Below are positions 40,209 to 43,961 of a stretch of 64,000 bases of DNA, in pieces. The position numbers and the translations under genes are program-made. The notes beneath the pieces were generated by a model. The model had not been told where the DNA came from, made no database searches, and saw only the letters and a program-made list of their open reading frames with translations. Each line of letters opens with the position of its first letter. Positions within the stretch are counted from its first letter, which is position 1. The DNA is from Rickettsiales bacterium (GTDB taxonomy: Bacteria; Pseudomonadota; Alphaproteobacteria; Rickettsiales; Rickettsiaceae): assembly GCA_947456795.1 (NCBI GenBank), contig CANGTI010000001.1:74900-138899 (forward strand), written 5' to 3'.

Positions 40209-40255
40209 TCACAAGGCTTTGATAATTGCATCTTTTGGATTTTGTGTTCTTTTGA
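40209..40255 (-). repeat. duplicate of the murG 3' end (remnant encoding ...KDAIIKAL*)
   Basis: 40209-40232 is identical over 24 nt to 42885-42908 (TCACAAGGCTTTGATAATTGCATC). The next ~23 nt match at about two thirds of positions. The remnant reads LKRTQNPKDAIIKAL*, versus murG LKNKSRNNLKDAIIKAL*. Confidence 0.8.
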
Positions 40256-40267
40256 GCGCAAAGAGTT

Positions 40268-40293
40268 AGGGCTTGCTAGATAAAGCAAGCCCT
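40268..40293 (-). terminator. GC-rich hairpin AGGGCTTGC-tagataaa-GCAAGCCCT
   Basis: 9-bp perfect stem read directly, only weakly T-flanked. It lies between the ORFan and the murG remnant. Confidence 0.3.
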
Positions 40294-40386
40294 GGCTTTG
40301 GATCTTTCTGATCAATGCAGATCTACCAAGGCTAAGTATAAAATACCTAAGGAACCCCTGGGCCAGGGCAAATTCACTTGCAAAGA

Positions 40387-40416
40387 GATGGAGGCAAGTA
40401 AATATTTACCTCCATC
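40387..40416 (-). terminator. hairpin GATGGAGG-(14 nt)-CCTCCATC, 37 nt downstream of the ORFan stop
   Basis: 8-bp perfect stem with an internally palindromic loop (GTAAATATTTAC). The minus strand continues TCTTTG. Confidence 0.4.
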
Positions 40417-40452
40417 CATGTGTAGGAAGCCTTACGCAACCAATACTAAAGT

Positions 40453-42732
40453 CTATCCAAGTTCCGTGGTCACGAATTCATGAGCGTACTCTGCTAACAT
40501 TGGCACCAGGAGGTTTACACGATCAGCGTGCTCTGTATGATCTAATGGGGAGAAGACGTGTGAACTTTGAAGAAAAGCCTGCTCCACAGTCTCAGCCGCA
40601 TCCATATTCTTTAAGTGCAGAGCTCTATCACCTGCTTCTACATAGAGCCTATCATTAACGTTATGGCAGATATTAGCAACCCTTGCGTGCATTATTTTAA
40701 TCTGGTCAAGTCGACCACTTGCAAAGTCTATAAAGTTACTAAATAAGTCCTCTTTTGGAAACGCGTTTCCTGCCCTTAGGCAAGCATCGACAGTACTTAG
40801 CGTGTTGCAGGCTTTAATCTTGTTAGTCGCCTGTTGAATAGCATCAATACTGTTAGAGTCGTCGTGATCATTTGTCAAAATCTCTAAATGAGGAGCATAA
40901 TCGTTCGCTTTTTTGTTGGTGAGCTGCAAAGCATCATGCATTGTTCTTATTGCCATCAAACCTGTATTATCCTTACTGGATTTTAAGAAGTTTTTTATAG
41001 AATCTGCAGTGCTTGTGTTACAGGATATAGCCTGGGACACACTGAGTGCAGATTCTTGCCATGCTTGAAAATCTTTTTGGCTAGTATGCAGGCTTTGGAT
41101 GTGCATTGCATTAAAAAACTCTTTCAAAGTGTTTTCATTACTAGATTCTTCAGACAGATCAACATCAAATTCACTCGCAAGATTGTCTACAAAATTCTTA
41201 GCTTTTTCGACAAGAGAATCACTGTCTACTAAAGATTGATAAGCCGTACTATAAAGTTCAATAGCCTCAGCAATTTTCAGGGTCATGCTTCCATTGTCTA
41301 CAGTATTGAAGGCATCAAGAGCAGTTGTTGCTGCTTGTTTGGCTTCTTCTGCTTTGTTTGCTGCTTTGTTTGCTTCTGCTACTTTGTCTGCTGCTGCTAC
41401 TACTGCTTTGTCTGCTTCTGCTTTAGCTGCTTTAGCTGCTTCTGCATCTGCTTTAGCTGCTTCTGCTTCTTCTACTGCTTTTGATGTATTAGACAGCAAT
41501 CCTGCTTCTGCTGCATCTGCTTTAGCTGCATCTGCTTTAGCTGCTTCTGCTTTAGCTGCTGCATCTGCTTTTAGTGTTTCGGCTTCTGCTTCTGCTTTTT
41601 TTACTGTTTCGGCTGCTGCTTTTGCTTCTGCTTCTGCGGCTGCTGCTTTTGCTTCTGCTTCTGCTTTGTCCTTATTTAGTTCAATTTTTGCTGACATCAG
41701 CTCAGTAAAAGAGTGATCATTGTCAAACTCCAGGCTGTCAAAGCTACGCTTGGTTACTTGACAGCTCGAGGCAAATTTCAGCATGTCTATTTTCTCTGCC
41801 ATGCTCTTTTTCATAAAGGGCAGCTGAGCGTCTACCTGAATATTTACGTAATAGTACAATGCATCTGATAGAGCCCCAGAGTTAGAAAGTAAACTCTTCC
41901 TACTAATCCAATGACATTGAAGAGGCATCTGATCAATAAGCGTACCTGCCTCTTCAAGGTCCTGCACATCTAAAAGTTGTACTTTTGCAGAGTTGGCGGA
42001 GGCGCTGACTGAGTGTGTTTGAGGAATGAGGCTTCCAAACTCGTATATATTGCCTGCTTTGTATTGGAAGAAATAATCTTGCTTCACATCCTCCTTAGCA
42101 ACTAAATGCTTATATTCAGTCTTTTTGGAACGCTTATTGCGGTCATCAACAAATTCGGTGTTAAGCATCCCAGATGCTGCCAACTTATCATAAACACTAT
42201 CAAGTCTTGAGAGAAAAGTACGTAGTGCGAGACCGTACTTTTCTATTAGTGTAGCACTACTCTTTTTGTCTGAGGTTGGGAGCTGCTTTAATGAATTTAT
42301 TATAGCGGTAGCGTCAAGTTCTTGTTGACCAGGGGCCTTTTTAGCGGCATTTTCTAAGTCTTGCTTCAATATTTCTTCAAGATTCACAAAGGAAAAAAGC
42401 TTAGAATTGAGGTCGGTAACGGGAGTTACTGCTTCTGCTTTTGCTGCTGCTTCTTTTTCTTTAGCTTCTGCTTCTGATTTTGTTGCTTCTTCTGCCGGGG
42501 TAGTACCTGCGCCGCCAGCTGCTGCCGGGCTAGCACCTACCACACTATTACCTGATTGACTTTGTTGGTCTTTTATTTGTTTCAGCAATTCAGTTTTTGT
42601 TTTGTTCAACGATGCAATCTCACTATTTATACCATCTCTTTGATTCCTGAATGCATTTTTTAATGATTGATGTTTGGCTGATAATTCTGCTTCTAATTTT
42701 CTTAGTTCTAGTTCTAGTTCTTCTTTATCCAT
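40453..42732 (-). CDS. 759-aa hypothetical protein with Ala/Glu/Lys-rich repeats and coiled coil (ORFan; no recognised domain)
   Basis: Long uninterrupted ORF with an ATG start. N-terminal charged coiled coil. Two A/E/K low-complexity tracts, including KADAA-type pentapeptide repeats, separate two non-repetitive regions of ~240 and ~290 aa. No signal peptide or TM segment seen by eye. Confidence 0.8.
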   Translation of the reverse strand: MDKEELELELRKLEAELSAKHQSLKNAFRNQRDGINSEIASLNKTKTELLKQIKDQQSQSGNSVVGASPAAAGGAGTTPAEEATKSEAEAKEKEAAAKAEAVTPVTDLNSKLFSFVNLEEILKQDLENAAKKAPGQQELDATAIINSLKQLPTSDKKSSATLIEKYGLALRTFLSRLDSVYDKLAASGMLNTEFVDDRNKRSKKTEYKHLVAKEDVKQDYFFQYKAGNIYEFGSLIPQTHSVSASANSAKVQLLDVQDLEEAGTLIDQMPLQCHWISRKSLLSNSGALSDALYYYVNIQVDAQLPFMKKSMAEKIDMLKFASSCQVTKRSFDSLEFDNDHSFTELMSAKIELNKDKAEAEAKAAAAEAEAKAAAETVKKAEAEAETLKADAAAKAEAAKADAAKADAAEAGLLSNTSKAVEEAEAAKADAEAAKAAKAEADKAVVAAADKVAEANKAANKAEEAKQAATTALDAFNTVDNGSMTLKIAEAIELYSTAYQSLVDSDSLVEKAKNFVDNLASEFDVDLSEESSNENTLKEFFNAMHIQSLHTSQKDFQAWQESALSVSQAISCNTSTADSIKNFLKSSKDNTGLMAIRTMHDALQLTNKKANDYAPHLEILTNDHDDSNSIDAIQQATNKIKACNTLSTVDACLRAGNAFPKEDLFSNFIDFASGRLDQIKIMHARVANICHNVNDRLYVEAGDRALHLKNMDAAETVEQAFLQSSHVFSPLDHTEHADRVNLLVPMLAEYAHEFVTTELG
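41340..41670. repeat. imperfect 15-bp-period tandem repeats (GCATCTGCTTTAGCT-like) inside the ORFan
   Basis: GCTTCTGCTTTAGCTGC and GCATCTGCTTTAGCTGC recur. On the coding strand they give AKADA / AEAAK units. Confidence 0.7.
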
Positions 42733-42847
42733 ACATTCACCATCTAATTAGTTTAAAAAATAACATCTACTTCTAACACGTTTTTTAAAAGAATTGCAAG
42801 TGGAAAAATTGCGTTTTATGTATGTTTAATATTGATCTTATGTTTTA

Positions 42848-42873
42848 TGACTGATTTTGATGACTGATTTTGA
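42848..42873. repeat. perfect 13-bp tandem duplication TGACTGATTTTGA x2
   Basis: Read directly. It lies 12 nt beyond the murG stop and about 115-140 bp upstream of the ORFan start. Confidence 0.8.
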
Positions 42874-42884
42874 TAGAATTATTC

Positions 42885-43961
42885 TCACAAGGCTTTGATA
42901 ATTGCATCCTTTAGATTGTTTCTACTCTTGTTTTTCAAGTGTAATAATCTGCAGGACATATCTGTAAGCATTGCTGGATTTTGCAATATGCACAAAAGCA
43001 GAGCAGACAACATTTGAACGCAGTTATCATCTTGCTCTATTCGCCAGGCACAGCCCAAGTTTTCTAGGTATTGAGCGTTTATACTTTGATGATTTTTAGC
43101 GGAAGTTGGTAACGGAATGAGTATTGAGGGTTTGTTTAGAGCAACCAATTCTTCTATTGTAGAGGCGCCTGATCTGCAGATCACAAGATCTGACTCATTG
43201 TATTTAGTGGTCATATCCAAAAAAAACTCCTCAGTTTGACATTCTACTGATAATTTTTGGTAGAAATCTTGGAGATGTTGGTGCTGATCTTTGCTTGCTT
43301 GCTGAGATATCTTCAGATTTGTTTTTGCATCTGTTGTCCTTAAATGCTTTATTGCGCTTGGAATTATTGTGTCAAAAGCTTTAGCCCCTTGGCTGCCCCC
43401 TATTGTTAGAATCGAATACTTTTGGCTACGATTTTTGGGTTTTTTTTGAAATTTGATTTCCTTGCGGACTGGATTTTTGTTAAAGACGCACTTATGCACG
43501 TATTTTTCTGGAAGGGTCAAAGCATCAAAAAAACCTAAGGATATTTTGTATGCATATCTTGCCATGATCTCATTTACTTTTCCTAAAACACTATTTTGTT
43601 CGTGTATAATTATTGGAATTCTCAAAATTACTGCGGCAAGTAGAGGAACAAAAGTGGTAAAGCCTCCGAATCCAACTATTAATTTAGGCCGATATTTTGC
43701 GTACATGTATAGCAGCTTAAATAGCGTGTGCGCCATATTCCAGAGCAAAATTACTTTACTTACCAGAGAGACCTTTGTGGTCATTCTGGGTATTGTTACT
43801 ACTTTTAGGAGAGTCGTACTTTGTGCATCAGGGATGTCGGTAATTATTATTGATGTTTTTTTGTACTCGTTTTGAAGTATATCGCCGATTGCAACTGCTG
43901 GAAAAAGGTGTCCCTTGGTACCTCCGCCCACAAAAATTATAACTTCTTTTGTATTAGACAT
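42885..43961 (-). CDS. murG: undecaprenyldiphospho-muramoylpentapeptide beta-N-acetylglucosaminyltransferase
   Basis: 358 aa. N-terminal GGGTKGHLFPAVAI, plus GGSQGA and CRSGASTIEEL motifs. Confidence 0.9.
   Translation of the reverse strand: MSNTKEVIIFVGGGTKGHLFPAVAIGDILQNEYKKTSIIITDIPDAQSTTLLKVVTIPRMTTKVSLVSKVILLWNMAHTLFKLLYMYAKYRPKLIVGFGGFTTFVPLLAAVILRIPIIIHEQNSVLGKVNEIMARYAYKISLGFFDALTLPEKYVHKCVFNKNPVRKEIKFQKKPKNRSQKYSILTIGGSQGAKAFDTIIPSAIKHLRTTDAKTNLKISQQASKDQHQHLQDFYQKLSVECQTEEFFLDMTTKYNESDLVICRSGASTIEELVALNKPSILIPLPTSAKNHQSINAQYLENLGCAWRIEQDDNCVQMLSALLLCILQNPAMLTDMSCRLLHLKNKSRNNLKDAIIKAL

Follow-up and report, generated by a model that had tools for sequence, protein, structure and literature searches.

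The subject of this report is the DNA behind the murG gene in a 64-kb stretch from an uncultured member of the Rickettsiales (contig CANGTI010000001.1, positions 74,900 to 138,899). The whole stretch, 64,000 nucleotides (nt) long, is called the window, and coordinates are positions within it unless another contig is named. Read along the murG strand, the order is ftsW, murG, a spacer of 152 nt, an orphan open reading frame (ORF) of 759 codons (ORF759), a 198-nt tail with hairpins, a displaced copy of the murG 3' end (remnant A) and a spacer of about 155 nt. Beyond this spacer follow a pseudogene (X), about 50 nt, a second and more decayed murG fragment (remnant B), and the stop codon of a convergent hybrid histidine kinase gene (HK). 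The distance from murG to HK is 4.66 kb, and the ORFs within 38229-42884 are ORF759 and fragments of X only. This arrangement is probably the product of two insertions, one after the other, into the murG 3' end by imported cassettes, each of which carried a single gene and a murG-like end. The features are listed in Table 1.

Table 1. Features of the region between HK and murG. Positions are those of the window; strand is that of the feature.
Feature	Position	Strand	Remarks
Hybrid histidine kinase / response-regulator gene (HK), convergent with murG	36546..38228	+	Pfam HisKA, HATPase_c, Response_reg
Remnant B, decayed murG 3' fragment, about codons 282-358	38286..38500	-	Solid homology 38361-38470; outer limits approximate
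Pseudogene X, orphan, putative cargo of the older insertion	38556..40052	-	Frameshifts and few stops; 3' part lies in a 164-nt tandem repeat
Remnant A, displaced murG 3' end	40206..40254	-	49 nt, 84%; exact core 40209-40232; reads KRTQNPKDAIIKAL*
3' tail of the putative younger insert, 198 nt	40255..40452	-	Two strong hairpins, 40388-40419 and 40262-40299; RNA fold z = -3.05
ORF759, orphan gene, 759 aa	40453..42732	-	Putative cargo of the younger insertion; no Pfam family
Spacer from murG stop to ORF759 start, 152 nt	42733..42884	-	No similarity to the spacer after remnant A
Live copy of the 49-nt repeat	42882..42930	-	Last 15 murG codons, stop and 3 nt; core 42885-42908
murG, intact, 358 aa, last gene of the ftsW-murG pair	42885..43961	-	Pfam Glyco_transf_28 (3e-23), Glyco_tran_28_C (6e-32)

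A preliminary description of this DNA had pointed out that the last 24 nt of murG recur exactly, in the same orientation, in the DNA behind the gene, and had held this to be no chance event. Both points are borne out. The 24-mer (TCACAAGGCTTTGATAATTGCATC, as read on the + strand) has exactly two copies in the window, both on that strand, and the number stays at two when up to three mismatches are permitted; the chance expectation, from 100 dinucleotide-preserving shuffles, is 0.00. The partial identity that had been seen beyond the 24-mer is also real. Gapless extension of the match gives a 49-nt repeat of 84% identity with a spacing of 2676 nt, which consists of the exact 24-nt core, a murG-internal side with 15 matches in 22 positions, and a side past the stop codon with 2 matches in 3. 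Alignment with MAFFT places the borders at the same positions (40206-40254 and 42882-42930) and detects no homology outside these 49 nt; the similarity ends abruptly on both sides, at 40254/40255 among them.

Only four non-trivial self-matches are present in the window. The window is thus nearly free of repeats, and the 24-mer is not a dispersed repeat within it. It is also absent from the metagenome contig and viral contig collections that were searched. Two other public assemblies have the same arrangement: a Logan contig (ERR12084901) shows no difference from the window, and a scaffold from another sample (ENA, MEHR18-2) has 2 mismatches in 14,893 nt. Since independent assemblies agree, the structure of the locus is not an assembly artefact.

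Remnant A still reads KDAIIKAL* at its end, as had been described. Its minus-strand translation is K R T Q N P K D A I I K A L *, to be compared with K S R N N L K D A I I K A L * in MurG; the distal copy encodes KRTQNPKDAIIKAL* and the MurG counterpart is KSRNNLKDAIIKAL*. The identity between the two copies is a mosaic, with 0 mismatches in the 24 core positions against 7 in the 22 positions beside them (Fisher p = 0.003). To judge from this pattern, a mosaic of this kind suggests that two murG ends of different ancestry have an identical block in common.

Remnant B goes back to an older murG end, of which it covers roughly the final 77 codons, also in murG orientation. The repeat search matches 38431-38470 to murG-internal positions 43045-43084 at 80% identity, and tblastn places MurG residues 294-331 on 38468..38361 at 42%, with in-frame stops. 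Aligned locally as DNA, 38374-38470 and 42982-43084 reach a score of 73, against 19.9±2.4 (maximum 30) for shuffled sequences. This is the best off-target score for murG, the rest of the window reaching no more than 33 with the exception of remnant A. The decay amounts to about 78% identity over about 100 nt, with indels, and the match is weaker beyond; MAFFT suggests that the weaker continuation reaches about 38500 upstream and, at the other end, an in-frame stop close to 38286. The decay of the two murG ends is graded: the proximal remnant A is better preserved than the distal remnant B, and both are in murG orientation. Remnant B adjoins the stop codon (38228) of HK, and for this reason all the DNA between remnant B and murG is regarded as added material. 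No further murG or HK remnants in the window's spacer rise above the shuffle background, and a window-wide tblastn search yielded no remnants of other genes.

The DNA between the two remnants had been taken for a coiled-coil gene abutting remnant A. The gene is not live. It is the decayed pseudogene X, in which the frame 39635..38721 spans 305 codons with only 2 stops, compared with 22.0±4.4 in shuffled sequences (minimum 10 in 2000), and in which frameshifts link further open segments. X is a recently inactivated gene, and the 2 stops in 305 codons are consistent with its loss after displacement. Searches with its conceptual translation returned no homologues. ORF759 and X show no similarity to one another as DNA or as protein (blastn, tblastn), nor do the 152-nt spacer upstream of ORF759 and the spacer after remnant A have any detectable similarity. 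The tandem duplication in the 3' part of X (38509-38813) comprises 1.9 copies of a 164-nt unit at 89% identity and repeats the peptide ...IKAQIEKQAKDQSRPEALNED.YHDASLDRS*.

Between the two copies of the 49-nt repeat the sole ORF longer than 150 aa is ORF759, accompanied by an upstream spacer of its own (152 nt) and two hairpins, in agreement with the preliminary description. The hairpin at 40262-40299 directly adjoins remnant A. The product of ORF759 is laid out as a long N-terminal helix, a Gly/Ala-rich linker and a central helical repeat region rich in Ala, Glu and Lys (aa ~343-476). A single-sequence AlphaFold (AF2) model has a pLDDT of 43 and contains confident helices only at residues 3-60 and 343-476. 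The codon usage and the GC content at third codon positions (GC3) are typical of the genes in the window. A word-indexed search of 5.8 billion proteins retrieved ORF759 itself and nothing else, a search in which Ala-rich low-complexity candidates could crowd out a true orthologue. A full HMMER scan of 1.84 billion representatives retrieved ORF759 and one spurious match, and here an orthologue of 50-65% identity could hide in its 50% cluster. Exact-protein look-ups of FtsW, HK and ORF759 led to the same strain only, and no elements related to the window's insert were found elsewhere. Two candidate matches to ORF759 were rejected: P0122 is a translated tandem repeat, and the PHROG 'tape measure' match (E = 2e-4) falls on the Ala/Glu/Lys low-complexity helix.

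MurG has more than 1000 homologues, the best named of which are from Rickettsiales. They place the organism among the uncultured Rickettsiales, with a lake metagenome-assembled genome (58%) and Ca. Sneabacter namystus (43%) as the nearest named relatives. The closest MurG found is 93% identical and comes from a 4,323-nt JGI contig (P0003; IMG metagenome 3300059473). The last 38 residues of MurG are only 76% identical to this relative, against 96-98% elsewhere in the protein (p = 2e-5). As far as the comparison goes, the divergent tail would be compatible with an imported 3' end. Residues 171-185 (window 43380-43450) are a further variable stretch, a short hypervariable linker that connects the two GT28 domains, with 47% identity to the same relative against 96-98% in its flanks. 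Directly downstream of the murG stop codon, within the 152-nt spacer, a 13-nt tandem repeat (TTTGATGACTGAT, 2.5 copies) occupies 42843-42874.

The neighbourhood of murG was compared among these relatives. Two samples of the 58% relative (contigs L005 and L006) have the same synteny as the window, flhA ... ftsW-murG-[spacer]-HK-PBP1A. HK is therefore the conserved distal border of a variable spacer, being the same neighbour in L005 and L006. The spacer there measures 4.1 kb and consists of an ORF of 638 or 496 aa with no Pfam domain and, after it, 2 kb of non-coding DNA that has decayed completely. This spacer, which is fully covered, contains no murG remnant and, by blastn and tblastx, does not resemble that of the window; in L005 no murG or HK fragment scores above the shuffle background. 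In a relative whose MurG is 66% identical (L003), yet another unrelated ORF follows murG, and in the 93% relative an ORF of at least 671 aa starts 138 nt after murG. Comparison of ORF759 with the ORFs in the same position in L003, L005 and L006 gave nothing significant with blastp, phmmer or tblastx. In Ca. Sneabacter namystus a convergent flhA comes directly after murG. Relatives thus keep the synteny and fill the spacer with unrelated DNA, which makes the murG-HK spacer a lineage-specific hot spot. Among the relatives compared, murG remnants are found in the window lineage only. A scan of genome contigs with MurG alone found no relatives, one with an alignment of eight MurG sequences found only relatives of 58% identity or less, and a scan of metagenome contigs with an alignment of three MurG sequences found nothing.

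Some further observations concern these same genes. The start of HK is ambiguous: the longest ORF, from a GTG codon, has 560 aa as in the relatives, and the public call has 465 aa (36831-38228). Between L005 (11095-11600) and L006 (11095-11700), the two samples of the 58% relative, there is an indel of 100 nt. It falls in the ORF downstream of murG, in an N-terminal repeat rich in Ala, Gln and Pro, and accounts for the two lengths of the called protein, 638 and 496 aa. The repeat number at that locus thus varies within the relative. The 684-aa gene at window positions 52493-54547 (L010 11061-13115) is flhA, of the FHIPEP family; it shares 55% identity with its counterpart in Ca. Sneabacter namystus, which is convergent to murG at a distance of 5 nt. 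The differing placement of flhA indicates that the neighbourhood of murG has been rearranged between the window lineage and Sneabacter. The presence of flagellar export genes in the window's Rickettsiales lineage is itself worthy of note.

The locus thus has two murG remnants of fixed order and common orientation with graded decay, a pseudogene between them, two cargo genes unrelated to one another, and unrelated fillers at the same place in the relatives. From these features we infer the insertion history, the source of the DNA and the mechanism of joining as follows. The ancestral murG would have ended about 50 nt from the HK stop codon, and remnant B would be the trace of that end. Gene X would have come with the first arrival, followed by a short tail and preceded by a murG-like 3' end and some 150 nt of spacer. 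The join would lie within murG, some 77 codons ahead of its stop, so that murG stayed complete and the old end moved downstream. The second arrival would have been built in the same way, from a murG-like end, the 152-nt spacer, ORF759 and a tail of 200 nt with terminator hairpins. Here the join would be 15 codons ahead of the stop. The event would have pushed gene X downstream together with the end that murG had at that time (remnant A), and X would have decayed later. The gradation, with A fresher than B and X nearly open, is what is expected if each event took place at the live end of the gene.

The most likely source of the DNA would be the equivalent locus of a related lineage, with a different orphan gene after murG. 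A donor of this kind is indicated by the murG-like end together with the host-like codon usage. The joining agent was likely host recombination and not an integrase. Two routes can be envisaged. In one, a crossover would have occurred inside the identical block of 24-27 nt. In the other, homology-facilitated illegitimate recombination would have been anchored in the conserved ftsW-murG sequence; this route implies that the live murG 3' end is derived from the donor, which fits the divergence of the last 38 residues of MurG.

Several points weigh against this history. No empty site or donor locus was retrieved, and scans of the collections with MurG and with the 24-mer produced nothing closer. 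The mosaic argument concerns 46 nt only, and selection on a conserved C-terminal motif could contribute to the pattern. The divergent C-terminus of MurG could simply be that of a tail under low or relaxed constraint. The outer borders of remnant B are only loosely defined. Finally, a single genome does not discriminate between crossover at short homology and illegitimate joining.

The preliminary description had offered two models, of which the first was the integration of DNA into the 3' end of murG with the supply of a replacement gene end, the shared core being att-like. Insertion is the model favoured here, and the mosaic identity fits DNA that brought its own murG-like end; it is the att site that finds no support, given the lack of an integrase, a tRNA or a known RNA element. 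Direct repeats in this geometry are classic for islands that target the 3' ends of genes. If a small mobile element had integrated at an attachment (att) site in the murG 3' end, the 24-nt core would represent attL and attR, and the integrase would have been lost or would have acted in trans. The exact direct repeat that brackets the insert, and the divergence of the arm on the element side, speak for such an event. The absence of an integrase, already remarked upon in the preliminary description, is confirmed by the lack of any recombinase match in Pfam and PHROG; across the 4.66-kb spacer there is no integrase, recombinase or transposase, each unit carries a single orphan gene, and the neighbours of the spacer are housekeeping genes. 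No tRNA or tmRNA is nearby, no Rfam element is present in the segment, and the 24-mer is missing from the viral and metagenome collections as well as from the rest of the window. The joins, moreover, lie at murG codon ~343 for remnant A and ~282 for remnant B, so no single att site was used. A second remnant at a different codon points to recurrent insertion, guided by homology or illegitimate, and not to site-specific integration, which we consider unlikely. A long target-site duplication was rejected, the identity being a mosaic and not uniform.

The other model holds that the murG 3' end and its downstream gene were duplicated in tandem where they lie and that the copies then diverged. It would account for the common orientation of the repeats and for the gene of coiled-coil-like sequence that comes after each of them, with some 150 nt of spacer in between. 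The two units share no similarity beyond the 49 nt, and this model is not upheld. Neither ORF759 and X nor the two spacers resemble each other, although the unconstrained 49 nt of remnant A are still 84% identical, and a neutral stretch at this identity cannot coexist with a total loss of similarity over the adjoining 2.6 kb; the duplication is rejected on these grounds. The mosaic, non-uniform identity of remnant A also disagrees with it, and one duplication cannot yield remnant B next to HK, which together leave it very improbable. It might also be asked whether the 24-mer is a scar at all. If the 24-mer had a function of its own at gene ends, for instance in protein binding or as an RNA element, or if gene conversion were ongoing, a perfect core could be preserved beside a diverged flank, and a strong hairpin does abut the core. 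The window holds only two copies, however, and both are ends of murG that keep its reading frame; no Rfam family matches, and the state of remnant B shows that at this locus the ends of murG do simply decay. Maintenance of this kind is hardly to be expected. That the match is due to chance or to assembly has a negligible probability and is already refuted, by the zero expectation and by the same structure in independent assemblies.

Serial displacement of the murG 3' end by insertion resembles events known from other systems. In rhs loci and in the effector-immunity arrays of the Vibrio type VI secretion system (T6SS), a conserved gene is followed by an accumulation of displaced 3' ends together with the genes downstream of them (PMC5361080), and homology-facilitated illegitimate recombination was put forward as the mechanism that generates these arrays (PMC5361080, Kirchberger et al. 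2017). For rhs, 'C-terminal displacement' is attributed to Jackson et al. 2009 (PMC2935791, as cited in PMC5361080). Homology-facilitated illegitimate recombination is recorded for naturally transformable bacteria and for E. coli conjugation (PMC3240628; refs 41, 42 and 47 as cited in PMC5361080). Like the rhs, cdi and T6SS arrays, the window has a complete conserved gene, at least two co-oriented displaced 3' fragments, each with a downstream gene, that are stacked and decaying, and no integrase. Unlike in those arrays, the conserved gene is a housekeeping glycosyltransferase instead of a polymorphic toxin, the displaced ends are very short (49 nt and ~215 nt) and functionless, the cargo is a single orphan gene without a toxin, immunity or other family match, and no selective logic, such as retained immunity, is evident. 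It is conceivable, if doubtful, that in this Rickettsiales clade the 3' end of murG, a housekeeping gene, serves as an integrase-free landing pad, where fast-evolving, effector-like orphan cassettes with short murG arms are exchanged among co-resident lineages and stacked and the older ones displaced and silenced, much as in rhs and T6SS loci; the 24-nt repeats would then permit the precise loss of the newest cassette.

Homology-facilitated illegitimate recombination as such offers the same combination of a one-sided anchor (here ftsW-murG) and a non-homologous join, which gives a hybrid gene, foreign DNA and a truncated recipient end. It differs in that the exact 24-nt block fits a crossover at short homology as well or better. 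Islands and prophages that use gene 3' ends (attL/attR) likewise have a direct repeat of the target-gene end flanking the insert, an intact gene and a diverged arm on the element side, but the window lacks an integrase, holds one gene in 2.7 kb and shows two positions in murG to have been used. In integron cassette arrays, new single-gene cassettes, often with genes of unknown function, enter at a fixed point and push the older ones back, as appears to have happened here. The window has no IntI, attI or attC, however, and its repeat is the coding end of the neighbouring gene.

The scar is a recombination scar of an ordinary and well-known kind, unusually legible, and constitutes a new example. 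It is more extensive than the preliminary description had it, comprising two nested displacement scars and a pseudogene. What the locus offers is a dated, two-step record of the gain and retirement of orphan genes at one hot spot beside an essential cell-wall gene. Such events would explain why the content of the murG-HK spacer is wholly different in each relative. If the donor was a related lineage, bacteria that are usually thought to be genetically isolated exchange DNA by recombination. The main value of this single locus in one genome is thus as evidence for orphan-gene turnover, probably through recombination between lineages, in an uncultured clade of Rickettsiales.

Elsewhere in the window, a perfect 26-nt palindrome (8310-8335) coincides with the start of the ORF at 8310-9230, and a 29-nt direct repeat (93%; 10503-10531 and 11454-11482) lies inside the ORF at 10395-12062. 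At 49055-50997 there are two adjacent Band_7 genes, distant paralogues of one another (23-25%, E ~1e-8) with the look of an HflK/HflC-type pair.

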